From Octopus sinensis (taxonomy: Eukaryota), in contig NC_042998.1 in the NCBI RefSeq assembly GCF_006345805.1, positions 182,590,001 through 182,654,000 on the forward strand: a DNA stretch of 64,000 nucleotides, read 5' to 3'. The position numbers were made by a program, and so were the translations under genes. This document shows, piece after piece, positions 991 to 55,062 of this stretch; position 1 is the stretch's first letter; each line of letters starts with the position of its first letter. The notes beneath the pieces were generated by a model that saw only the letters and a program-made list of their open reading frames with translations, was not told the origin of the DNA and did no database searches.

Positions 991-1102
991 ACGTGCGTGC
1001 ATGCACGTGCGCGCACACACTCACACACAAAACAATGGTACAGATTGTTAAATAGTTGCTTTAAATCCAGGACAAGCAAATTAATATAGCTTTAATAATT
1101 AC

Positions 1103-1144
1103 CCTGCCAGCACGTGCTCCCCTAGGACTTGCAGCAGATTTACT
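1103..1144 (-). CDS. Array microexon 12 (42 nt, SKSAASPRGARAGR) of minus-strand coiled-coil gene; gene likely continues beyond window start
   Basis: Minus strand ...tttacAG|exon|GTaatt; phase 0/0, no stop; homologous to the other array units. Confidence 0.7.
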
Positions 1145-1806
1145 CTGTAAAGCAAAAGGAAAGCATATATATTTATGTTACTATTAAAAAGGTAAATATA
1201 TTTCTTGATTCTAAACAGCACAATTGTTCAGTGAAGACTCTATACAAAGTCAGACAGTTGCCTACTAGTCTTAGGCATCCTGTAAATCCATGTATGTATC
1301 AATGGCATAATTGGTACATATTGCAAAGTGCATCATTTTGTATAAAAAAGAGAATGGAAAGCTCAGCATATCACCACATGCATTTCAATAGCATGGTTAT
1401 TTATGACGAATGCAAAGTACATTAAATAACATTACATAATTCTGCATCGTCACATAACAATCCTGTTTCATCAGGTAACCTTCAGCAACCATTCTGTGAA
1501 ATACAATCAGTCTTTGGAGAAAAAGATCTTTATACTCATAGATTCGACTTTGTCTTACCCAGTATAGCCTAAGGAAATTTTGTGGTTATGCAACAATGCA
1601 AAATTATGCACATTGCACTGGTAGTAGATAATTGCACTATTAAGATGTCTGAGCTCTCCATTAAATATTCTTTACAACACACACACACACACATACACAC
1701 ACACAACACAAAACAGACACACACACACACACACATAATGATATTAATAGTTGAATAATTGCATTTCAATTCAGGACAAACAAATTTATATCTCTTAAAT
1801 AATTAC

Positions 1807-1842
1807 TTTGTCAGCATCCACGAGGTCATAATGGCTGATTTT
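1807..1842 (-). CDS. Array microexon 11, aberrant (36 nt KISHYDLVDADK if the shifted AG is used; otherwise a pseudo-exon)
   Basis: Donor GTaatt intact; the usual CAG acceptor reads CCG; next AG 2 nt inside gives a 36-nt in-frame exon. Confidence 0.4.
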
Positions 1843-1925
1843 CTCGGTAAACTAAATGAAAGCATATATATATATACACACACATATATATACATACATA
1901 CATACATACATATATATATGTAACA

Positions 1926-2293
1926 AACACCATCCGAGTGTGGCCGTTCGCCAGCCTCGTCTGGCACCTGTGTCGGTGGCACATAAGAAAACACCATCCG
2001 AGCGTGGCCGTCTGCCAGCCTCGTCTGGCACCTGTGTCGGTGGCACATAAAAAACACCATCCGAGTGTGGCCGTCTGCCAGCCTCGTCTGGCACCTGTGT
2101 CGGTGGCACATAAAATCACCCACTACACTCTCGGAGTGGTTGGCGTTAGGAAGGGCATCCAGCTGTAGAAACACTGCCAGATCTGACTGGCCTGGTGCAG
2201 CCCTCGGGCTTGCCAGACCCCAGTTGAACCGTCCAACCCATGCTAGCATGGAAAGCGGACGTTAAACGATGATGATGATGATGATGATGATGA
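1926..2293 (+). mobile_element. SINE family C with internal ~63-bp tandem repeats and (GAT)n tail
   Basis: Three copies of caccatccgagtgtggccgt...ggtggcacataa; same 3' end at 15725, 17066 and 23648. Confidence 0.8.
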
Positions 2294-2295
2294 TA

Positions 2296-2344
<49 letters not shown>

Positions 2345-2870
2345 TCTAATGGTATAGTAAATATATTTCTTGATTTTAAAAAGTACATTTAAATTAGTGA
2401 GTGTAGTGCTCCATGCAAAGCCAGAGAGTTGTCTGCTGGTCTTAGGCATTCTGGAAACCCACGTATGCTACAATACCATAATTGATACATATTGCGAAGT
2501 GCATCATTTTGCTTAAAAATATATATTCTCACATGCATTTCAATAGCATGGTTATTTATTACGAATGCAAAATATATTATTCAACATCATATAATTCTGC
2601 ATTGTCTTAGAACCCTACTGTTTCATCAGATGATATTCAACAACCATTACATGAAACACAATCTATAGGAATAAAGATCTTTATGCTCATAGATTTGACT
2701 GCGTTTTACACAGTATCACCTGAGTAAATGTTCTGGCTTTGCAACAATGTTCAATTACGTAATGTTATGTAATGTACTTTGCACTGATAATTAAGAATTA
2801 TAATGTTAACATGTGTGAACTATCCATTCAGTTTTCTTTACCACACACACACACATACACACACCCACAT

Positions 2871-2926
<56 letters not shown>

Positions 2927-3003
2927 ATACACTTACACAATGGTATAGGAGGTTGGATAGTGCTTTTCAGTTCAAGACAAATTAAAACATCTTTAATAAT
3001 TAC

Positions 3004-3051
3004 CCTTTCAGAATCCTTGCTGTCATCTTTTGAACTTGTGGCAGATTTTTT
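3004..3051 (-). CDS. Array microexon 10 (KKSATSSKDDSKDSER)
   Basis: ttttacAG / GTaatt, 48 nt, phase 0/0, open. Confidence 0.8.
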
Positions 3052-3749
3052 CTGTAAAATAAAATGAAAGCATATATATTTACGATTCCATTAATATAGC
3101 AAAATATATTTCTTGATTTTAAATAATATGTTTAAATTGTTCCATATAGTGGTTTATACACTGTCAGACAGTTGTCTACTGGTCTCAGACATTTCGTAAT
3201 TCCTTGTATGTATCAATGACATAATTGGTACATATTGCACTGTGCATCGTTTTGTATAAAAAAACAGAATGGAAAGCTCAACATATCACCATTTGCATTT
3301 CAATAGAATGTTATTTATTACAAATGCAAAGTATATTATATAACATTATATAATTTTGCATTGTCACAGAGCCATACCATTTCATCAGATGATATTTAAC
3401 AACCATTCCATGAAAGATAATCAATCTATGGGTATAAAGATCTTTATCCTCATAGATTTGACTGTATTTTACACAGTATCACCTGAGGAGATGTTTTGGC
3501 TATGCAACAATGTGCAATTATATAATGTTATGTAATGTACTTTGCACTGGCAATAAAGATTCACAATGTTAAGATGTGTGTAATGATGTTTTGAACCATT
3601 CATTCAGTCTTCTTTACCATACACATGCACACATGTGCATGCACACATACACAAATATGCACAAACACGCACATACACTTACACAATGGTATAGGAGATT
3701 GAATAGTGCTTTTCAGTTCAAGACAAATTAAAACATCTTTAATAATTAC

Positions 3750-3797
3750 CTTTTGAGCATCCTTGAAGACATCTTTAGCTTTCCTGCCAGGTTTTTT
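3750..3797 (-). CDS. Array microexon 9 (KKPGRKAKDVFKDAQK)
   Basis: ttttacAG / GTaatt, 48 nt, open; visible inside ORF 3600..3821. Confidence 0.8.
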
Positions 3798-3892
3798 CTG
3801 TAAAATAAAATGAAAGCGCATATATTTACGATTCCATTAATATAGCAAATATATTTCTTGATTTTAAATAGTGCAACGTTTAAATTGTACTA

Positions 3893-4287
3893 TACTCTTT
3901 TACTCTTTTACTTGTTTCAGTCATTTGACTGCGGCCATGCTGGAGCACCGCCTTTAGTCGAGCAGATCGACCCCGGGACTTATTCATTGTAAGCCCAGTA
4001 CTTATTCTATCAGTCTGTTTTGCTGAACCGCTAAGTGACGGGGACGTAAACACACCAGCAATGCTAGAGGGACAAACACAGACACACAAACATACACACA
4101 CACATACATATATATACATATATACGACAGGCTTCTTTCAGTTTCCGTCTACCAAATCCACTCACAAGGCTTTGGTCGGCCCGAAGCTATAGCAGAAGAC
4201 ACTTGCTCAAGATGCCACGCAGTGGGACTGAACCCAGAACCATGTGGTTGGTTAGCAAGCTACTTACCACACAGCCACTCCTGCGCC
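3893..4287 (-). mobile_element. tRNA-derived SINE family A
   Basis: A/B-box-like head (ggctgtgtggtaag, ggttcagtccc), internal (TA)n, AAGAGT tail; many near-identical copies in window. Confidence 0.88.
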
Positions 4288-4629
4288 TATGTAGTGGTTT
4301 ATACAGTTAGACAGTTAATCAGGTGATATTCAGCAATCACTCATTGAAATACAGTCAATCTTGGAGAATAAAAATCTTTTTACTCAGCTTCACCCAAGGA
4401 AGCTTTGTGCTTATGCAACAATGTGGAATTATGCAATATTATGTAATCTACTTTATATTGACAATAAATAATCACACTGTTGAGACGCGTGTAATAATGT
4501 TTTGAGCTATCCCTTAATTTTTTTACTACACACACACACACATACACACACACAAGCTCAGTGGCATAAATGGTTGAATAGTTGCTTTTCAATCCAGGAT
4601 GAGCAAATTAATATATCTTTAATAATTAC

Positions 4630-4659
4630 CTTACTCAGTTGTGCTCCGGCAGATTTTTT
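4630..4659 (-). CDS. Array microexon 8 (30 nt, KKSAGAQLSK)
   Basis: ttttacAG / GTaatt; length is a multiple of 3. Confidence 0.72.
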
Positions 4660-5337
4660 CTGTAAAACAAAGGAAAGTATATATATCCATATTTATATAC
4701 TAACATGATTCCACTAATGTAGCAAATATATATCTTGATTTTAGATATTACATTTAAGCTGGTCAGTGAAGAGTCCCCACAGAGTCAGACAGTTGTCTAC
4801 TGGTCTTAGGCATTCTGTAAATCCATATATGTATCAAAGGCATAATTAGTACATATTTCAAAGTGGATCATTGTGTACAGTGTAAAAGATTGGGGAGCTG
4901 AACATATCAAATGTACCTCAATAGCATGGTTATTTCTGATGAATGCAAAGGACATAATATAACATTACATAATTCTGCATTGTCACAGAGCCATACCATT
5001 TCATCAGGTAATATTCAGCAATCACTCATTGAAATGCAAACATTTTTTTGAGAATAAAAATCTTTATCCAGTTTACACAGTATCACCCGAGGAAACAGTG
5101 GTTTTGCGACAATGTGAAATTACATAGTGTTGAGTAATGCACTTTGCATTTATAATACATAATCACACAGTTGAGATGTCTGTAATGATGTTTTGAGCTA
5201 TTCATTCATTTTTATCACACACACACACACACACATGCAAAAAAATCAAACAGCGTTTCAACTCTGCGTGAGTATATGTGTATGTATGTAAAAGGGAGTC
5301 ATGTGAATGTTTGTTTGTTTGTGTGTGTGTGTGTGTG

Positions 5338-5369
<32 letters not shown>

Positions 5370-5618
5370 CGTGCGTGTGCGTGCATGTGTGCATGTGTGT
5401 GTGTGTGCAATGGAAGCGGGATGGTGAATATTCAATGCTGAAAACAAAAGCCAAATAGCATTTCAACTCTGTGTGTGCATATGTGTGTATGTGCGTGCAT
5501 GTACATGGGAAGTATGTAAGTGTTTCTGTCTGTAATTATTTTGTACATTATTTATATATAAAATACTACAATTAGCCATCATTTTTGACAGTACGGGGCC
5601 AGCTAATCTTATAATTAC

Positions 5619-5666
5619 CTTGTCAGCATCCTTTTGGTCATCTTTAGAACTTAAAGCAGATTTTTT
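5619..5666 (-). CDS. Array microexon 7 (KKSALSSKDDQKDADK)
   Basis: tatatAG / GTaatt, 48 nt, open. Confidence 0.78.
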
Positions 5667-5887
5667 CTATATAATAAAATGAAAGCATATATATTTATAA
5701 TTCCATTAATGTAGTAAATATATTTTTTGATTTTAAATAGTACAACATTTAAACTGATGAGTGTGGAGTCCATACACAGTTAAACAATTGTCTACTGGTC
5801 TTAGGCATTCTGTAAATTCATGCATGTATCAATGGCATAACTGGTACATCTGGCAAAGTGCATCATTTTGTATACAGAAAAAGAATG

Positions 5888-6285
5888 GGATCTTTTCGGT
5901 TTGAACGGTAGTTTTTTCTAGCAGTGTCATATGAAATTGTCACCCATAATTATGACCCTAGTATCGATCTATTGCATTTCAATCTGTCTTAGGGTTAGGG
6001 TATCTTTTTTTCTTCACAAATGTAAATAAACCCAATCTGTTTCTTAAATGAGGGACATATTCATACGGCACAGAATGTTTTCACCTCAATAGACGTCATT
6101 GATTGGTTGAAATTACAGAAATTGAAGAAAAAGCAACAACAAATATCTTACAAACTATAGAATTTTCTCAATAAAGCCAAGAAAAAAGATGTTTTATAAA
6201 CACATTCTACCAGTATACGAAGTTTAAAAGTGCTTAGTTACGTGGAAATTATTTTAAAAAACTGCCGTTCAAACCGAAAAGATCC
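5888..6285. mobile_element. MITE with ~30-bp TIR and 8-bp TSD (Merlin-like GG termini)
   Basis: ggatcttttcggtttgaacgg ... ccgttcaaaccgaaaagatcc, flanked by aaagaatg on both sides. Confidence 0.85.
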
Positions 6286-6641
6286 AAAGAATGGAAAGCT
6301 CAACATATCACCACATGCATTGCAATAGCAGGATTATTTATAATGAATGCAAAGTACACTACATAACTCTGCACTGTCACATAACCATACTATTTCATCA
6401 ATTGATATTCAGCCATCATGCTTTGAAATCCGATCAATCGTTGGGGATGAAGACCTTTATCCTCATAGATATGCCTGAAGTTTACTCAGTATTACCTGAG
6501 AAAATGTCGTGGTTATGCCAGACTATGAAATCTGATAATGTTATATAGTGTACTTTGCACTGATAATAAAGAATCACACTATCAAGATGTGTGCAATGAT
6601 GTTTTGAACGATCCATTTAATTTTCTTTGATACACACACTA

Positions 6642-6684
<43 letters not shown>

Positions 6685-6751
6685 GGTATAAATGGTTGAA
6701 CAGTTGCTTTTCAATCCTGGACAAGTAACTTAATATATCTGTAATAATTAC

Positions 6752-6799
6752 CTTTTCAATGTCCACGGCATCATCTTTGACGCTAAAGGCAAATTTTCT
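6752..6799 (-). CDS. Array microexon 6 (RKFAFSVKDDAVDIEK)
   Basis: ttttacAG / GTaatt, 48 nt, open. Confidence 0.8.
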
Positions 6800-7752
6800 C
6801 TGTAAAACGAAAGGAAAATGTATATGTTCATGATTCCATTTATGATTTTAAATTGTACAACATTTAAATTGCTTAATGCATTGATCCATACGGAGTCAGA
6901 GACCTGTCAACTTGTTTTAAGCATCCTGTAAATCCATGTATGTATCAATGGCGTAATTGGTACATATTGCAAAGCTCAACATATCATGACATGCATTTCA
7001 ATAGCATGGTTATTTATTAAAAATACAAAGAATGTTATATAACATTACATAATTCTGCATTGTCACATAATAATCCCATTTTATCAGGTGATATTCAGTA
7101 GCCATTTCATGAAATACAATCAATCTATGGTGATAAAGATATTTATCCTTATAGATTTGCCTGCATTTTACCTAATATTACTGGATGATATGTTGTGGTT
7201 ATGCCAGAATACGAAATTACGGAATGTTATGCAGTATATTTTATATTGATAATACATAATCACACGTTTGAGTATGTGTTTCATGATGTTTTGAGCTATC
7301 CATTAATTTTTCGTTGTCTACATTATGTAACATTATATAATACTGTTTTGTGACATAACCATACCATTTCATTAGGTGATACTCAGCAATTACGCATTGA
7401 AACACAATCAAACTTTAGAGTAGAGATCTTTATTTTCATAGATTTGCTTACATTTTACCCTGTATCAGCGGAAGATATGTTGTGATTATGCCGGGATTAG
7501 CATGGAAAACGGACGCTAAATGATGATGATGATGATGATGATGATGTGAATTTACATAATGTATACTTCACATTGATAGGAAAAATAATTACATTGTTGA
7601 GGTGTGTATAATGATGTTTTGACCAATACATTCAGGTTTCTTCACCTCACACACATGCACACACACATACACACACACAGACAATGACATAGATGGTTGA
7701 ATAGTTGCTTTTCAGTCCAGGACAAGCAATTTAATATATCTGTAATAATTAC

Positions 7753-7800
7753 CTTATCAGGATCCAGACTATCATCTCTGGATTCTAAGGCAAATTGTTT
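7753..7800 (-). CDS. Array microexon 5 (KQFALESRDDSLDPDK)
   Basis: ttttacAG / GTaatt, 48 nt; inside ORF 7642..7920. Confidence 0.8.
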
Positions 7801-8519
7801 CTGTAAAACAAAAGGAAAACATATATTCAAGATTCCATTACTGTAGTAAATATATTTCTTGATTTTAAATAGAACAACATTTAAACTGGTGAGTCTAGTG
7901 GTCTGCACACACAGTCGCACAGTTGTCTACTAGTCTTTTGTACTCTGTAAATCCAAGTATGTACCAATAACATAATTGATACATTTTGCAAAACGAATCA
8001 CTTTGGGTAAAAAAGTGAATGGAAAGCTCAACATATCATGACATGCATTTCAATAGCATGGTTATTTATTATGAATGCAAAGTATTTTCTATAACATTAC
8101 ATAATTCTGCATTGTCACATAACAATCCCATTTCATCAGGTGATATTCAGTAGCCATTCAGTGAAATGCAATCAGTCTTTGGAGATAAATATGTTTATCC
8201 TCACAGATTTGCCTGCATTTTACCCAATATTACTAGATGAAATGTCGTGGTTATGTCAGAATATGAAATTACGGAATGTTATTTAGTGTACTTTTACATT
8301 GATAATACATAATCACACAGCTGAGATGTGTATCATGATGTTTTGAACTATCCATTCATTTTTTGTTACCACACATTCACTCACACACACACGTACACAC
8401 ACATACAGAGCAAACACACATGCACACACACTCAAACTCACACATACACAATGGTATAGAGGGATGAATAGTTGCTCTTTACTGCAGGTTAAGCAAATTA
8501 ATATATCTTTAACTATAAC

Positions 8520-8854
8520 CCTGTCAGTATCCATGTGATGATCTTCTATTATGATAAAGGCAAAATTCTGTTTTTTGGGAGCCCTGTGTCTCAGTCCACA
8601 TTTGCTCTACTCTCTTTTACTCTTTTACTTGTTTCAGTCCTTTGACTGTGGCCATGCTGGAGCACCGCCTTTAGTCGAGCAAATCGACCCCAGGACTTAT
8701 TCTTTGTAAGCCCAGTACTTATTCTATTGTTCTCTTTTGCCGAACCGCTAAGTGACGGGGATGTAAACACACCAGCATCGGTTGTCAAGCAATGCTAGGG
8801 GGACAAACACAAACAAACACATACACACACACACACACCACACACACACACACA

Positions 8855-8921
<67 letters not shown>

Positions 8922-9550
8922 TACGACAGGCTTCTTTCAGTTTCCATCAACCAAATCCACTCACAAGGCATTGGTCGGCCCGGGGCTATAGCAGAAGACA
9001 CTTGCCTAAGATGCCACGCAGTGGGACTGAACCCGGAACCATGTGGTTGGTTAGCAAGCTACTTACCACACAGACACTCCTGCGCCTCTATAGAGACATA
9101 TACATTTTGGAATCAGGATGAAACAGGGATTGAAACTCTACCCTACATTCTTGAACATCCAGCAATTAAATCTGATTTAAAAGCATTTTATTTGCTTGTT
9201 GTAGCAGATATAGCATGGATGATGCACACCACTTTGACTGGCATTTGTGAGATGACGTCAGAGATGAAGTGGGCGATAAATTTTATGTCAAGAACTTTGG
9301 GACAAACTGGCCGATATTTGAAATTTAACTTGGGACGCAAATGATTGCATTACAGAATTAATTCTCATCAATCTTTAACCTCTGATCAAACACCACCGGG
9401 GCATATAGTTATTATAGACATATTATAGTCATGCTATTTAGCTCCCCTTAATTTTAGGTCACAAGCCCTATGAGCCCTCCATAGGACGGAATGCAAATAT
9501 CCACATGGTGTGTAGCTTTCAAGAGAGTTAGAAATAAAGGCAGATTTTCT
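8520..9550 (-). pseudogene. Array microexon 4, split by a ~980-bp insertion (reconstructed RKSAFISKDHHMDTDR)
   Basis: Joining 9528-9550 to 8520-8544 restores a 48-nt exon matching the array consensus; acceptor beside 9550, donor GTtata beside 8520. Confidence 0.65.
8608..9086 (-). mobile_element. SINE family A nested in the insertion that splits exon 4
   Basis: Near-identical to 3893-4287. Confidence 0.88.
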
Positions 9551-10186
9551 CTGTAAAACAAAAGGAAAACATATATTCATAATTCTATTAACATAGTAAA
9601 CAAATTTCTTGATTATAAATAGTACAACATTTAAACTGGTCAGTGAAGAGACCACACAGAGTCAGAGTGTTGATTACTGGTTTTAAGTATCTTGTATATA
9701 TCAATGGCATAACTGGTACATATTGCATGATTTTGTGTAGAAAAAGAGAATGGAAAGCTCAACATATCACCATATGCATTTCAATAGCATGATTATGAAT
9801 GCAAAGAACATTATATAACATTATATAAATCTGCATTGTTACATAACCATACCATTTCATCAGGTGATACTCAGCAATCACGCATTGAATACAATCAATC
9901 TTTGGGGATAAAGACCTTTATCTGCATAGAAATGTCGTGATTATGCCAGAATGGGAATTTACATAATGTTACATAATGTACTTTACATTGATAGGAATAA
10001 TCATACTGTTGAGATGTGTATAATGATGTTTTGACCTATACATTCAGGTACCTCTCTCTCTTTCTCTCTCTCTCTCACATACACACACATACATACACAT
10101 TCACACACACACAGACAATGGCATAGATGGTTGAATAGTTGCTTTTCAATCTAGGACAAGCAATTTAATATATCTGTAATAATTAC

Positions 10187-10234
10187 CCTTTCAGATTCAA
10201 GAAATTCATCTCTGGATTCTAAGGTAGATCTTCT
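10187..10234 (-). CDS. Array microexon 3 (RRSTLESRDEFLESER)
   Basis: ttttacAG / GTaatt, 48 nt; identical to the exon at 10872-10919. Confidence 0.78.
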
Positions 10235-10871
10235 CTGTAAAACAAAAGGAAAACATATATTCATAATTCTATTAACATAGTAAACAAATTTCTTGATTAT
10301 AATAGTACAACATTTAAACTGGTCAGTGAAGAGACCACACAGAGTCAGAGTGTTGATTACTGGTTTTAAGTATCTTGTATATATCAATGGCATAACTGGT
10401 ACATATTGCATGATTTTGTGTAGAAAAAGAGAATGGAAAGCTCAACATATCACCACATGCATTTCAATAGCATGATTATGAATGCAAAGAACATTATATA
10501 ACATTATATAAATCTGCATTGTTACATAACCATACCATTTCATCAGGTGATACTCAGCAATCACGCATTGAAATACAATCAATCTTTGGGGATAAAGACC
10601 TTTATCTGCATAGAAATGTCGTGATTATGCCAGAATGGGAATTTACATAATGTTACATAATGTACTTTACATTGATAGGAAATAATCATACTGTTGAGAT
10701 GTGTATAATGATGTTTTGACCTATACATTCAGGTACCTCTCTCTCTTTCTCTCTCTCTCTCACATACACACACATACATACACATTCACACACACACAGA
10801 CAATGGCATAGATGGTTGAATAGTTGCTTTTCAATCTAGGACAAGCAATTTAATATATCTGTAATAATTAC

Positions 10872-10919
10872 CCTTTCAGATTCAAGAAATTCATCTCTGG
10901 ATTCTAAGGTAGATCTTCT
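10872..10919 (-). CDS. Array microexon 2 (RRSTLESRDEFLESER)
   Basis: ttttacAG / GTaatt, 48 nt, open. Confidence 0.8.
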
Positions 10920-11615
10920 CTGTAAAACAAAAGGTAAACTTATATTCAGGATTCCATTAATGTATATTCATTGATTTTAAATAGAACAACATTTAAACTG
11001 GTGAGTCTAGTGGTCCACAACACACATTCAGACAGTCATCTACCAGTCATTCATACTCAGTAAATCTATGTATGTACCAATAATATAAGTGGTACATATT
11101 GTAAAACGAATCACTTTGTGTAAAAAAGTGAATGGAAAGCTCAACATATCATGACATGCACTTCAATAGCATGGTTATTTATTATGAATGAAAAGTATGT
11201 TCTATAACATTACATAATTCTGCATTGTCACATAACAATCCCATTTCATCAGGTGATATTCTGTAGCCATTCAGTGAAATGCAATCAGTCTTTGGGGATA
11301 AAGATGTTTATCCTCACAAATTTTCCAGCATTTTACCCAGTATTACTGGCTGAAATTCGTTGATTATATCAAAATATGAAATTACGGAATGTTATGTACT
11401 TTACATTGGTAATAAATAATCACATGGTTGAAATGCATATAATGATGTTTTGAGCTAACCATTTTATTTTGTTTACTACATACATATATACATACATATG
11501 TATGTACATACATACGTACATACATGCATGCATATATATATATAATATGTTATAGATATTTGAATAGTTACTTCTCAATCAAGGACAGGCAAATTGATAT
11601 ATCTTTAATTATTAC

Positions 11616-11663
11616 CCTGATAGAAGTTCTACTGGAATCTCTAGTAAGCATGGCAGCTTTTTT
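11616..11663 (-). CDS. Array microexon 1 (KKAAMLTRDSSRTSIR)
   Basis: ttttgcAG / GTaata, 48 nt, open; most diverged flanks. Confidence 0.78.
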
Positions 11664-12737
11664 CTGCAAAAGAAAAGGAAGGCATACATATTTATGATTA
11701 TATTTACATCGTAAATATATTTCTTGATTTTAAATAGTTCCATATAAATTTCTTCAAAATATGAGTGAAGTTAAAATTTATCCACACTTTTGCCATTACA
11801 TATCGTTATTATTGTTACACTACCTTCTTCACATGCATACTTATAGATGGTATTATTGTGGTCACCTGATCGATGTTTGAGCCTGAACACATCATTTATT
11901 GTTCTGGCTTTACAGTGTAAGTATGGCTGCTCCTCTAGCAATGTGCACCAAAGAAGAACAAAGAGCAGTGGTTGGAAGGCATGTCAGGTGCTAAAATTCA
12001 TCAGAAGATTTTAAACACAATTGGTTAATGGTTTCAACAGTCTGGGTGGCCATGTGTGGAAGTGCATTGTCATGCAGCAACAAAACTTTCTTCAACAATA
12101 GGTTTCAGTGTTTGGTGTGAATTGCTGGCTTCATTTTGTTTGCCAGCAAAGTAATGTATCTTGCACTATTGATCGTACACCCCTTTTCCAGATAGGTATC
12201 CAGTATTGGCCCTTTTGAGTTAGAATCACATTTCCTAACCACCATTGTATTTTACCAAAGGTTCCGTCCGCTCCATCGAAATTCAGGACCAGGCACTGCA
12301 ATAGTCTAGGGTTATGACCTGCCACAAAAATAAGAAATCTGCATAAGGTGGAAGTAGGTGTCTTCAGAAAGAAACTAGACATTCTCCAGTCCACAATACC
12401 AGATGAACCAACAGCTTGACATGAGATGCGGACGAGGGTAGCAGAATCAAACTTCCTTATACATCAAATTGGCCAACAGTTGGGACAAAGGCACATACAG
12501 GAGTGGTGATGTGAAACACTCCACACTGAGAAAATCAGCATGACAATAGCTGCATGGCTGAAACAAGTAAAAGAGTAAAAGATATATATTTCATCTAAAG
12601 GAGATCCCTTTAAAGATGCATAATGTTATAAAACACAGCATACTTCAAAGCTAGGTGAAACAAATCACCCTCAAAGTGAATGAGAACACCAAATACTGAT
12701 ATTTTACAGTTATTTCCACTCATCAATGTTACATATA

Positions 12738-21171: not shown

Positions 21172-22027
21172 CTTAAGTTTACCATGAAATGGTCCTTTTT
21201 TCATGCCGAATTCTACTTGGTGAAATTATGGATTACTTCTTAATTAATAATATTTCCTTTTTTGTCTTTGGCATCCTCAATTATATGATGTCCCATTTCA
21301 TTGCCTTTTTAACTCCATTATTTATTAATTTTAAGGAGTAATTCCAACATTATAAGGGAAAGGCACTCGCACTTTGCGGGACATTTCTGGCAAACTAAAT
21401 AAGAGCTGGAAAGTAACCTACTGCTATAGATACCAAAGCAGGGCCATACTTGAGCTAGTTATCCAGACACAACATATGTAGATCAACTCACTAGAGAAAC
21501 TGGATGCCTCCCCGAAGGCCTTACTCAACTAATGTAGGCCTGATATGGATGCTGTATGGGGGTTAAAAATGCCCAAGCAAGCTCAACCAAATAATGGCGA
21601 TCAGAAAACCTTTAAGTTCATTCAGTTGAATTTGACATATTTTTGGGTCAGCCACTGTTACACAAATATTTCTTGCCATACTAAGTGCAATGTTTTGTTT
21701 GATGTGTAAAGGATGGCAAGAACAGAAGTTCAAATATTGGTATGTGTTTGTTTTTTGCAAATACTGACAGGACACAGATAGTGTGTCTATGGCCAGCTGG
21801 AGGAGTGTGTCCTCCTGGGGCTAAAAACTACAGTAGCATCCACCCTTAGGGGTCAGCCATATTGAAATGGCAAAAATACGTCACGATGTGTTACCGCTAC
21901 TGTATATAACTCACTTTGATATTTATCATTGTTTGATTTCACTTTTTCAATATCAGCGACAGTGGGCGCTGGAAAAAGTATAAGTATTTGTGAAGGAAAT
22001 CTAATTCTCGGCGACAACTATGATTGT

Positions 22028-22072
22028 CACACGCTGACGAGAGGTCAATACCTCGAAACTCGAGTCCGTGTG
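22028..22072 (+). ncRNA. Type I hammerhead ribozyme (minimal), copy 1
   Basis: cacacg CTGACGA gaggt caat acctc GAAA c tcga GTC cgtgtg: all core nucleotides and three stems present. Confidence 0.88.
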
Positions 22073-22380
22073 TATCATAAGTTGAAGACGGGAAGGATGA
22101 CTTCCCTTTGCAAATACTGACAGGACACAGATAGTGTGTCTATGGCCAGCTGGAGGAGTGTGTCCTCCTGGGGCTAAAAACTACAGTAGCATCCACCCTT
22201 AGGGGCTAGCCATATTGAAATGGCAAAAATACGTCACGATGTGTTACCGCTACTGTATATAACTCACTTTGATATTTATCATTGTTTGATTTCACTCTTT
22301 CAATATCAGCGACAGTGGGCGCTGGAAAAAGTATAAGTATTTGTGAAGGAAATCTAATTCTCGGCGACAACTATGATTGT

Positions 22381-22425
22381 CACACGCTGACGAGAGGTCA
22401 ATACCTCGAAACTCAAGTCCGTGTG
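22381..22425 (+). ncRNA. Type I hammerhead ribozyme, copy 2
   Basis: Same motif; loop 3 is tcaa instead of tcga. Confidence 0.82.
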
Positions 22426-22635
22426 TATCATAAGTTGAAGACGGGAAGGATGACTTCCCTTTGCAAATACTGACACGACACAGATAGTGTGTCTATGGCC
22501 AGCTGGAGGAGTGTGTCCTCCTGGGGCTAAAAACTACAGTAGCATCCACCCTTAGGGGCTAGCCATATTGAAATGGCAAAAATACGTCACGATGTGTTAC
22601 CGCTACTGTATATAACTCACTTTGATATTTATCAT

Positions 22636-22670
22636 TATATATATATACATATATATAGATAGATAGATAT

Positions 22671-31973: not shown

Positions 31974-32256
31974 CTGTGGCAAAAGTAAAAAAAATTTTAA
32001 GAAAAAATCAAATCAATCAGCTATTTATTGATTAACAACTGATAAGAATAACAAAGTTTCACTGTATAAACATAGACTTTTAATCTGTTTCTTATAGCAG
32101 CCAAACTATATCGCCTAATGAAAGCAGCACATGTAAATATTAGTAACTTCTGTGAAGAATCAATTAATGGAAGCCAAGATCACAATATCTTCAGGCATAG
32201 TTTTATCAATGTAAATTAATATATATATGGAATTTATAGCTGTGATACATATAATT

Positions 32257-33538
32257 TGTGATTTTGGCACCACTGGCTTTCCATACTTTGTGATTTTGGC
32301 ACTGCTGGCTTTCCATACTTTGTGATTTTGGTACCGCTGGCTCTCCATACTATGTGATTTTGGGTAAAATTTTCAAAAATCACAGTATTTTAAGGGAAAA
32401 AATTTAGGGAAAATTTTAGGGGAAAATTTTCGGGAAAAATTTCGAAAAATTTTTGGGGAAAGTTTTCGGGGAAAATTTTCGAAAGATTTTGGGGGATACT
32501 TTTCGAAAAATTTTTGGATAAAATTTTCGAAAAATTCTTAGATAAAATTTTCAAAAAATTTTTGGGTTAAATTTTCGAAAAATTTTTGTGAAAAATTTTC
32601 AGTGAAAATTTTGTAAAAATTTTTGGAAAAAATTTCGAAAAATTTTTATAGTGCATGATCATCCTGGGAATCTAAGTAATGCATGTGTAAAATTTGGTGA
32701 AAATCGGTTGATAATTATGGAAAAGTATGTCACACATACTGCAACTTAGGTGATTTTGTGATTTTGGCACCGCTGGAATTCCATACTTTGTGATTTTGGC
32801 ACGGCTGGCCTTCCATAGTTTTTCGAAAATTTTATCCAAGAATTTTTCGAAAATTTTCCCCAAAAATTTTTCGAAAATTTTCACCCAAAAATTTTTCAAA
32901 AATTTTCACCGAAAATTGTCCCCAAAAATTTTTACCAAAATTTTGACCGAAAATTGTACCCAAAAAGTTTTCGAAAATTTTCACGAAAAATTTTTCGAAA
33001 CTTTTCAAAGAAAATTGTCCCCAAAAATTTTTCCAAAATTTTCACCGAAAATTTTAGACAAAAATTTTTCGAAAATTTTACCCAAAAATTTTCTCCAAAA
33101 ATTGTTGGAAAGTTTTCACAGAAAATTTTCCCCAAAAATTTTTCGAAAATTTTCACGAAAAATTTTTCGAAACTTTTCACCGAAAATTGTCCCGAAAAAT
33201 TTTTCCAAAATTTTCACCGAAAATTTTACATTTTCGAAAAATGTTTGGTCAAAATTTTTTAGTAAAATTTTCGAAAAATTTTTGGGTAAGATTTTCAGTG
33301 AAAATTTTCGAAAAATTTCTGGAAAATTTTCGGTGAAAATTTTCGAAAAAGTTTTGAGAAAATTTTCCAAAAATTTTTGGGTAACATTTTCTGTGAAAAT
33401 TTTCGAAAAATTTTTGGATAAAATTTTGGAAAACTTTTTGGGGAAAATTTTCGAAACATTTTTGGGGAAAATTTCCGGTGAAAATTTTCGAAACATTTTT
33501 GGGGAAAATTTTCGAAAAATTTTTGGGGAAAAAATTCT
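32257..33538. repeat. Composite satellite: 32-bp minisatellite plus GAAAATTTTCGAAAAATTTTTGGG-type repeat in alternating orientations
   Basis: Blocks ~32365-32650 and ~33240-33538 in one orientation, ~32818-33230 in the other. Confidence 0.9.
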
Positions 33539-35613: not shown

Positions 35614-35705
35614 AATATTTGCACCTGTGTATTAATAACTTCCAAGATATATGCTTCAGTGCCGCGCTTCTCAATCACTATATCTTCCCTCAAGTCTTCC
35701 ACCAT
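35614..35705 (-). CDS. Internal exon (MVEDLREDIVIEKRGTEAYILEVINTQVQI)
   Basis: tttcttAG / GTaagt, 92 nt, phase 0/2, matches the next exon. Confidence 0.8.
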
Positions 35706-40328: not shown

Positions 40329-40472
40329 CGATTTCATTGCAAGTAAGTAATCACTTATAGTTTTGACTTGAAAATCATCAAATGAGTTTGAAGACTGCTT
40401 CCTTGCAATAATACACTTTCTAAATTCCTCCTTGGCAGTCATCCCACTAAAAAACGCCTTCTTTCTTAAGAG
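40329..40472 (-). CDS. Probable first coding exon (ATG at 40442: MTAKEEFRKC...LLAMKS) of a coiled-coil protein, tentatively C10orf67/DUF4709-like
   Basis: ttttcAG / GTaatt, 144 nt, open throughout; family assignment is from recalled motif spacing only. Confidence 0.72.
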
Positions 40473-44430: not shown

Positions 44431-44585
44431 CTTTGGTTAGACGATTTTATTTTACAAGACGATCAAAGCAATAAATTTGCTTCTTTTGTAATATGGCTGG
44501 GACTTCTAATAAATCACTATCAAAAATAGTTTCGTTTTCAGAGATGTAAATATTTTCAAAGAAAATTCAAAAGAATGTGTAATAA
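44431..44585 (-). other. Candidate 5'UTR exon
   Basis: tttcAG / AAG|GTaagt; stop codon in the frame joining the 40.4-kb exon. Confidence 0.4.
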
Positions 44586-53109: not shown

Positions 53110-55062
53110 TGTGATGTAAAGGAAGAAAAAGACGGAAGCGAAGAGAGAATGACGGTAGTCTTACGAGGGCTCGTACCTGTTGCATCTCCCCACTAGTCTT
53201 TGCACGTTCTGCCTGGTCACATCAGAGTCAACTTTCCTGGCTAGGAACAGGGTCCTGTCCACTCCTATGTGATGCATAGTATGCAATCTCCTCAGCTCCG
53301 AGTCACTCAGTCGACACACTGCAGCCACTCCTTGCTCCAGATCCTCTGGCACCTGCAAGGAATCAGAATACCATCCTTGAACCACCGGTCCACCTCTCCC
53401 TCGACTCGAACATGCTTCTGGCATCCCTTCTCAGAGTATGCTGATAGTATCCTACTGTGTTTTTCAATGTCAGAGGATCTCCCTTCCAGTGACATTCCAC
53501 TGTCGATTGCCGGCCATCGAACACAGCTCAAAATCTTTGTCTGTGATGGTGTGTGCAGTATATTTTTCTTCACAGCTCTCAACACTCTCCTGTCGCGAAC
53601 TCACAGCGCACAGCACCCCCAACATCATCGAACACTACACCGGCTTCATTGACCGTAAGATCTCCCAAGTGGACAATGACATCCATCCCCATCACGACAT
53701 CGATCCCGTCAACTACACAATCAATTACAATAGCCTGCGACCTTGATCTTGTTCCTCGTTCCACCATCTTCACATCGCTACTTCCTCTGCATTCAACTTC
53801 CATTCCATCAACAGCCCTTACACTACTCACTCCACTCCATTCTTCTATCACTTCTGGTGTCATTAAGGTTGTTGAGCAGCCCATGTCCACGAGGGCTCGT
53901 GACACCTTTCCGTTCACCACGGCTTCTACTACTGGCAACAACTGTAAATGCGCCTCTATTCGTTTGACTGGATGACTACTGGCGCAGTAGTCTCCCTTGG
54001 ACCGTTTCCCTGCAAGCATTCAATAGCGATGTGGCCTATTTGTCTGCATCGATAGCAAATTACTCCAGGCCTGGGTTCCCTACAGTCCTTCACCATGTGC
54101 GAACCCTGACACCGAAAATAATGCCCTTTGAAGGGTTGCGCACGTTCCTTGTTCGATCCCTCTCCGCTGCTCTTTGTTCGACCCCTTCCCGGTGTTGCCG
54201 TCGCTGCCAAAGGTGTCGTCCTGCAACACGAGACAATGGCTCTGGCCCGAGATATTACCTCTCCCATTGCCATAAAGTGAATGTTTGGCAGCTTTTGCAG
54301 CTCGACTGACACCTGGTCAGGAAATCCTATCACAAAGGCTAATTTTATGGTTTGTTCTAATGTGCCATCTCTATATCCCACGAGTCTAGCCAATTTCCTG
54401 ATTTCATTGGCAAACACATCAACCTGTTTGCCCATCCACTTTGCTTTCCCCAGTCGACCATATGCCATAAATGACCCTTCTGTGAAAGCCTCCATCTTCT
54501 ATTTTTTCTGCACTCAACTGGTCCTTCTCTTCCACTTTCAGGTATAGTACCAACACCGATCCATTAAGGTATAATGGTATAAAACTCGCTAGATCATCTA
54601 TACCTTGGAGTCTTGCCACCAACTTAATTTTTTGCAGCCAAGCAGTCACATCTCCCTCGCCACAAAATGGCCTAACTATCTCATTCGAAACACAAACCAT
54701 ACCCATCATTTTTTTTTTAATGTTTGAGCCGAAATAGCTTGTGATGTAAAGGAAGAAAAAGATAGAAGTGAAGAGAGAATGACGGTAGTCTTACTTGTCA
54801 GTCTGGATAAAGGGTCACTTTCAACATCCACGTGTTGTCCTGATCTCCAAAGTTCACTCCACGTCCACGTGCACTATCCGTTGCTGTACCATCTCACACA
54901 TCCGCCCTCTTGTGCTGCTCGCCCCCAACTGACCCTCGTGCTTTGCTGATGCTGCATGGCCACCGCAACACTTTTGGTGGAATCCACAGGCCCCACTTCT
55001 GACAGGACATGCCTACTCCCTCACTTCCAATCCTTCCCTACAACACAGCCTGGCTCATAACA
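53110..55062 (-). mobile_element. Internally deleted Ty3/Gypsy LTR retrotransposon
   Basis: 323-bp LTR TGT..ACA at 54740-55062; 55-bp LTR end repeated at 53110-53164; gag with CCHC knuckle, protease ALVDMG, integrase HH-CC-like fragment; no RT. Confidence 0.88.
53579..54709 (-). pseudogene. Frameshifted gag and aspartic protease of the Gypsy element
   Basis: ORFs 54419..54709, 53956..54495 (CYRCRQIGHIAIEC) and 53579..54019. Confidence 0.82.

Follow-up and report, generated by a model that had tools for sequence, protein, structure and literature searches.

The minus strand of positions 1030-11740 of the stretch analysed here, a window of 64,000 nucleotides from the Octopus sinensis genome (NC_042998.1, positions 182,590,001 to 182,654,000), carries a real and apparently functional tandem array of mini-exons. 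A unit of ca. 700 nt, repeated with insertions, fills this interval. The host gene is LOC118762221 and its protein of 923 amino acids (XP_036356659.1) is already in RefSeq. The most probable reading is that 13 tandem exon-plus-intron copies lie in this DUF4709 gene and that the intact exons are spliced mostly in series, giving a probably disordered spacer that is rich in Lys, Ser and Asp and follows the N-terminal domain. A prediction made from the sequence had called the array hidden; this does not hold, as XP_036356659.1 already includes nine units of the window and the 13th.

A scan of the minus strand for a donor motif with a pyrimidine tract and AG upstream gave ten cassettes of 30-48 nt, all phase 0/0 and stop-free, and also a 36-nt candidate at 1842-1807. 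A profile of the ca. 700-nt unit recovered the ten cassettes, both halves of a split unit, and a 13th unit in the DNA left of the window, where more units had been thought possible. The total is 13 units, 11 intact and two decayed. Ten of the 12 cassettes of the original prediction are thus found intact at their positions, with the described AG-exon-GT structure on the minus strand, including the 30- and 42-nt variants, whereas the split unit (9551-8520) and the unit at 1844-1807 have decayed. Tandem Repeats Finder does not report the ca. 700-nt unit because its period limit is 500. The introns of the array are 635-1844 nt long. Microexon cut-offs are commonly 27 or 51 nt, and most array exons qualify under the looser one only. 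The units are the following, where model refers to the RefSeq model.

11663-11616, minus strand: exon of unit 1, 48 nt; in model
10919-10872, minus strand: exon of unit 2, 48 nt; identical to unit 3; model has one of units 2 and 3
10234-10187, minus strand: exon of unit 3, 48 nt; youngest duplication
9551-8520, minus strand: pseudo-exon of unit 4, split by a multi-copy insertion of ca. 985 nt (9528-8544); weak donor; absent from model
7800-7753, minus strand: exon of unit 5, 48 nt; in model
6799-6752, minus strand: exon of unit 6, 48 nt; in model
5666-5619, minus strand: exon of unit 7, 48 nt; in model; 14 of 16 amino acids equal to O. bimaculoides repeat 5
4659-4630, minus strand: exon of unit 8, 30 nt (18-nt in-frame deletion); in model
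3797-3750, minus strand: exon of unit 9, 48 nt; in model
3051-3004, minus strand: exon of unit 10, 48 nt; in model
1844-1807, minus strand: pseudo-exon of unit 11, acceptor lost, 10-nt deletion, repeat insertion just upstream; absent from model
1144-1103, minus strand: exon of unit 12, 42 nt (6-nt in-frame deletion); in model
C2:182589258-182589211 (left of the window), minus strand: exon of unit 13, 48 nt; in model

Splice sites were scored with matrices whose training set came from further exons in this gene (25 acceptors, 24 donors). In the 11 intact units the acceptors reach 15.7-25.2 bits and the donors 7.4-11.7 bits. The donor of unit 4 reaches 3.3 bits. The first 431 nt of the insertion in this unit have 1159 genome-wide candidates (40 were scored, at ca. 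71-77% identity), and a SINE-like (short interspersed nuclear element) repeat is nested inside the insertion. In unit 11 the homologous acceptor AG has become CG and the exon is shortened by 10 nt. Two rescued forms were rejected on their acceptors: the 36-nt version of unit 11, part of the original prediction, depends on a substitute AG located 2 nt downstream, with a score of -11.3 bits, and a 48-nt exon of unit 4 starting from the AG at 8567 scores -15.5 bits. Left of the window there is also a partial 14th intron unit without exon (C2:182586377-182586513). The next exon beyond it (51 nt, at C2:182584395) shares the donor motif; it is possibly an older copy.

A protein search with the upstream exon at 29221-29075 gave two candidates, XP_036356659.1 and O. 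bimaculoides XP_052821827.1. XP_036356659.1 maps exactly to 45 coding blocks that span ca. 148 kb, from window position 40442 to C2:182482467. The part before the array is encoded by the following exons.

40442-40329, minus strand: first coding exon, amino acids 1-38, from XP_036356659.1 mapped to the window
35705-29075, minus strand: coding exons starting at 35705, 31974, 30818 and 29221, amino acids 39-160, most of DUF4709
24767-13243, minus strand: upstream exons (24767, ca. 18613, 15393-15340, 15090-15016 and 13332-13243), amino acids 161-286, the last ending in phase 0

As predicted, the frame runs on from the exons at 15393-15340, 15090-15016 and 13332-13243 into the array. The RefSeq model strings together ten array units (1, one of 2 and 3, 5-10, 12 and 13) and omits both dead units. 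Amino acids 287-730 are encoded by 28 blocks, all of 27-57 nt and phase 0/0, which corresponds to 28 of the 45 blocks and 444 of the 923 amino acids (48%); the array therefore belongs to a long series of small symmetric exons. The composition of amino acids 287-438 is K 19%, S 16%, D 14%, A 11% and R 9%. Directly after the exon at 13332-13243, the minus strand of 13220-13140 by eye seems to repeat, in decayed form, the acceptor and the first part of that exon. A candidate 5' untranslated exon, whose donor is strong, lies ahead of the coding exons (44431-44580, minus strand).

The exons of the array are more diverged than the introns that surround them, a contrast previously undescribed for this locus. 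Whole introns align at 63-82% identity, with one pair at 99%. Over 35 pairs of the nine 48-nt units, which leave out the unit 2/3 pair, mean identity is 0.60 for the exon, 0.77 for the upstream intron and 0.81 for the downstream intron; exon identity is below upstream-intron identity in all 35 pairs, although the pairs are not independent. Units 4, 8, 11 and 12, which are not 48 nt long, were left out of all exon comparisons. In a set of six units, all 85 overlapping intron windows of 48 columns are less diverged than the exon. On six units a two-rate model beats a single rate (exon 1.86, intron 0.92; twice the log-likelihood difference, 2dL, is 18.2, p = 2e-5), and the test repeated on seven units gave p = 3e-5; it was done without unit 3, which is identical to unit 2, and without unit 1, which has a short homologous upstream flank, and the six-unit run was also without unit 9. 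Nei-Gojobori estimates for the array exons are 0.58 for nonsynonymous (dN) and 0.51 for synonymous divergence (dS), a ratio of about 1.1. Classical positive selection, with the rate ratio omega above 1, is not supported (2dL of 0.28 and 0.87). Omega is indistinguishable from 1, and therefore the synonymous sites are fast too.

A second array is present in the same gene at C2:182541077-182516458, 50-75 kb downstream. It consists of a 54-nt phase-0 exon in nine copies, most of them in units of ca. 3 kb that are 93-98% identical, with two alternating exon types. Eight copies are intact and one is frameshifted at 53 nt; the RefSeq model lacks three intact copies and the frameshifted one. Between the two exon types there are 14-15 differences in 54 nt (ca. 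72% identity), whereas the 200-nt flanks differ at 0-5 positions per side in most comparisons. When 15 differences in 54 exon positions are compared with ca. 3 in 398 flanking positions (flanks ca. 99% identical), p = 1e-12. Point mutation would be an implausible source of such a contrast, which could arise from homogenised introns around retained exon types.

Copies are gained and lost in a lineage-specific way, as the first array has a young pair and two decayed units and the O. bimaculoides set is different. The block duplication that gave units 2 and 3 (10960-10226 versus 10275-9542) has 726 of 733 aligned bases identical and is either very young or an assembly duplicate. XP_052821827.1 has ca. 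12 similar repeats in series, partly a different set, when its repeat borders are drawn by our own segmentation. Repeat 5 shares 14 of 16 residues with unit 7, as listed above. The repeats 7-10 resemble each other (10-16 identities), and the last repeat is the best match of unit 13 (score 53); the turnover is therefore species-specific. Whereas amino acids 1-286 are 81% identical between the species, only 4 of 16 residues are equal between unit 1 and the repeat at the corresponding position. To judge from the two proteins, this is the pattern that birth and death through unequal exchange would be expected to leave. XP_052821827.1 ends abnormally, seeming to read through the donor motif of the array after the repeats, and a second O. 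bimaculoides model (P0003) also ends abnormally, continuing into sequence that is unrelated. In these O. bimaculoides annotations the gene is probably truncated.

We propose that unequal crossing-over likely made the tandem copies of the ca. 700-nt exon-plus-intron unit. Because phase-0 copies can come and go without a frameshift, a birth-and-death turnover would follow. Selection would retain the splice sites and the open frame, not the exact residues. Gene conversion or unequal exchange would homogenise the introns, while exon variants would persist, possibly with added diversifying selection. A palindrome in the introns would be the relic of an old foldback element, or one resembling a miniature inverted-repeat transposable element (MITE), that the founder unit contained and that was multiplied together with this unit.

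This palindrome belongs to an old dispersed family that makes up ca. 490 nt of each intron and ca. 70% of the unit; its core of ca. 350 nt is a degenerate palindrome. The copies are the following.

11115-11480, unstranded: palindrome in the intron between units 1 and 2; the intron folds at z = -8.65
3250-3621, unstranded: palindrome in the intron between units 9 and 10; z = -8.33
ca. 10738-10410, 10053-9737, 8374-8005, 7315-6960, 6635-6286, 5224-4880, 2846-2528 and 1680-1336: other palindrome copies
7650-7319 and 4533-4312: partial palindrome copies

The z-scores come from the two introns that were folded, with 20 shuffles each. The arms are 64-75% complementary, and eight copies of the element end near profile position 483-502. 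The intron profile matches 13 of 14 fetched genome loci, which had been chosen as similarity-search matches, and all 13 on both strands, so that dispersed copies with long inverted repeats are present, as in MITE or foldback elements. No clear target-site duplication was found in the flanks of 11 copies. Near-full-length matches to the unit in the 2.72-Gb assembly are confined to C2:182.586-182.602 Mb, and outside the locus there are only short matches of 67-87% to one part of the intron. The possibility that the unit is a dispersed genome-wide repeat, raised earlier as an objection, accordingly fails for the unit as a whole and applies to the ca. 490 nt in each intron. A scan of 1000-12000 at the Rfam gathering thresholds gave no matches. 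Covariation is weak: 7 of 68 pairs are compensatory with an unfavourable covariation term of +1.24, a level reached by 3 of 500 shuffles when relatedness is ignored, and the covariation tests do not support a selected RNA structure in the hairpin. Given the few compensatory changes and the lack of an Rfam match, the palindrome is read as an inherited foldback- or MITE-like relic. As the arms are repeated, duplexes across introns are predicted to be nearly as stable as cognate ones (mean -81 kcal/mol for arms of different units, -90 within units, and -41 for shuffled arms), and for five of nine left arms a non-cognate right arm downstream is predicted to pair better than the cognate one.

Several known systems share features with the array. 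Silk exons are long and internally repetitive. In the spider Flag and Argiope MaSp2 silk genes, introns are nearly identical within a gene and exons more variable, as here, but slippage is blamed for this (PMC3563967), whereas the octopus exons have 48-54 nt and differ by point changes. The PEVK region of titin is similar in having many short exons, a region of charged, low-complexity composition, lineage-specific duplication and loss, and mobile elements, and some PEVK exons are under positive selection (PMC6469411). Unlike the octopus array it belongs to an unrelated gene and is rich in P/E/V/K instead of K/S/D/A, and alternative splicing is established for titin, whereas the octopus gene is known from gene models. 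Short exons of the same phase duplicated together with their introns are found in both, and by analogy the array appears to work as a titin-PEVK-like symmetric exon array. With its phase-0 exons and probably disordered spacer, the gene also fits the general pattern by which symmetric exons encode disordered regions through internal tandem duplication; that study covers human genes, and its abstract is silent on exons outpacing introns and on intronic palindromes (PMC3632108). The schistosome micro-exon genes (MEGs) likewise have much of their coding sequence in very small symmetrical exons, and the dN/dS values of 1.10-1.14 in three of them compare with about 1.1 in the octopus array (PMC4350168). 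MEGs encode secreted flatworm proteins with signal peptides and demonstrated differential splicing, whereas the octopus gene encodes a DUF4709 protein of a mollusc, in which the N-terminus is charged and by eye lacks a hydrophobic run. As MEGs are limited to platyhelminths in the same source (PMC4350168), membership of the octopus gene was rejected. Dscam-type clusters resemble the array in the tandem duplication of exon and intron and in the intronic stem-loops copied with the exon, but they have one docking site and many selectors (PMC6071210), whereas in the octopus both arms occur in every unit and the exons are included together in the models. Neither one exon per transcript, judging from the gene models, nor a single docking site with weak splice sites is seen here.

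Could the array be an untranscribed or neutral satellite that looks like exons only because a single real exon was copied? An omega of about 1, the decay of two of 13 units and the old repeat element that fills most of the unit would fit, yet we consider this very improbable. AG, GT and frame are preserved in 11 of the 13 units in spite of the faster divergence of exons as compared to introns; the deletions in units 8 (18 nt) and 12 (6 nt), both of them live, are multiples of 3, as compared to 6 of 33 intron gaps; and the O. bimaculoides protein model has the same type of repeat. In neutral simulations on a star tree, none of 4000 runs ended with ten stop-free exons and all AG and GT intact at either of the two divergences tested, while the absence of stops alone was passed in 9.8% and 1.9% of runs; the simulation assumes independent copies and ignores the two decayed units, which overstates the significance. 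The protein repeat built exon by exon that had been predicted is supported by the gene models of two Octopus species, which place the units in series. The other option in that prediction, a Dscam-like mutually exclusive cluster with one exon per transcript, deserves hardly any credence. Such clusters usually arise from tandem, homologous exons that are equally long and have similar introns (PMC9013439; PMC6071210). However, the models of the two species chain 10 and ca. 12 units, which makes exclusion unlikely, the splice sites are uniformly strong, and introns of the length found here are long enough for neighbouring exons to be joined. Joint inclusion keeps the frame, and for that reason exclusion would not be imposed by nonsense-mediated decay. 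There was no sign of a single docking element; the complementary element is present in every intron.

Serial inclusion has a more serious, though still unlikely, competitor in a combinatorial cassette, in which intact exons would be skipped in many in-frame sets, steered by arms pairing between introns, to give linkers of varied length and charge. Every intact exon is phase 0/0, as this would require, more than half of the left arms pair better with a non-cognate arm, and the RefSeq model leaves out intact copies. The titin PEVK array is alternatively spliced (PMC6469411), and duplicated intronic stem-loops have been proposed to yield competing structures (PMC6071210). The uniformly strong splice sites, the weak covariation and the single isoform found per species argue in the other direction, and with both arms inside each intron a local hairpin could form first during transcription. 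The protein searches revealed no alternative isoforms, only XP_036356659.1 (in a cluster of one member) and XP_052821827.1 being found, which is weak evidence. Improbable is a transposon-born splicing randomiser, in which a foldback element caught in the founder intron would have been multiplied with the exon, the left arm of any intron would pair with the right arm of any later one and loop out in-frame blocks of exons, and diversifying selection would make the exons differ. If true, one cephalopod gene would give combinatorial linker isoforms.

Several points weigh against our preferred explanation of serially spliced, turning-over copies. Serial inclusion is based on RefSeq models, which are predictions, and the O. 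sinensis model omits intact-looking copies, namely one of units 2 and 3 and three of the eight intact 54-nt copies; these omissions could result from exon skipping, from reads that map ambiguously, from a haplotype difference or from duplications that are assembly errors. Pairing of arms from different units makes the looping out of exons physically possible, to judge from the predicted duplexes. The distance between exons (p = 0.40) exceeds that between the intron element and its dispersed relatives (0.31; 0.22 from array to array), which therefore calls for exon acceleration or for exons that predate the spread of the element, and the data fit both alike. Homogenisation by itself may thus not explain the first array. 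In addition, the exon comparisons are ungapped, and their divergence can be inflated.

The N-terminal part of the protein is assigned to the DUF4709/C10orf67 family, marginally so by Pfam. PF15821 (DUF4709) matches amino acids 24-106 with 27.8 bits against a cut-off of 27 (E = 3.6e-6), and the O. bimaculoides protein stays under the cut-off with 25.6 bits. In the Atlas feature search the top three matches (0.92-0.95) are DUF4709/C10orf67 clusters, the best at 0.95 with 205 of 256 features shared. The DUF4709/C10orf67 clusters listed are 351-525 amino acids long, as compared to 923 for the octopus protein. Two of these clusters have a C-terminal DUF4724 in 15-56% of their members; in XP_036356659.1 there is no Pfam match to it, and an Atlas search with amino acids 750-923 gave generic coiled-coil leads below 0.9 only. 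A phmmer search with amino acids 1-286 against 1.84 billion representatives returned three matches, all from octopods. The Argonauta relative is 41% identical over amino acids 14-159 only and has no part that aligns to the array; an O. vulgaris fragment is also among the relatives found. The Atlas structural model is of low confidence (predicted local distance difference test, pLDDT, 0.48), and structure matches with template modelling (TM) scores of mostly 0.5 or below are uninformative. A literature search, for which most subscription journals were out of reach, gave nothing on this octopus gene among the papers listed and nothing on DUF4709. Human C10orf67 is testis-enriched. For C10orf67, the literature is reported to hold no hint of a function (PMC5094585). 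Our best guess is that the protein may be a scaffold of the coiled-coil type, with a charged linker that is tunable and can be phosphorylated.

The locus is a compact case of protein growth exon by exon, with a 99%-identical newborn, diverged copies, two dead copies and other expansions in the sister species. With its transposon relic every intron has a built-in neutral clock, against which the exons change about twice as fast. The locus permits a direct test of gene conversion versus diversifying selection, and a test of whether exon skipping is driven by the duplicated intronic hairpins. For the annotation it means that the RefSeq model is uncertain, with four intact copies left out (one of units 2 and 3, and three 54-nt copies). 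There is no unknown gene here, and a new splicing mechanism only if RNA data reveal combinatorial use.

Other repeats were noted in the surrounding sequence. An intronic tandem repeat of 353 nt (21754-22636) has 2.5 copies with 99% identity. The minus strand of 53161-54790 has broken open reading frames, which by eye we take to resemble the gag/protease/integrase region of a long terminal repeat retroelement. Left of the window (L011, ca. 1960-3100) lies a very A+T-rich stretch with an internal inverted repeat, which may be a nuclear copy of mitochondrial DNA. An A/T-tract satellite at 32387-33533 is built from subunits of 12-13 nt with higher-order periods of 24, 37 and 61 and switches between A-rich and T-rich orientation; 32-nt repeats lie at 32251-32363 and 32755-32821, and the satellite yields long low-complexity spurious open reading frames.

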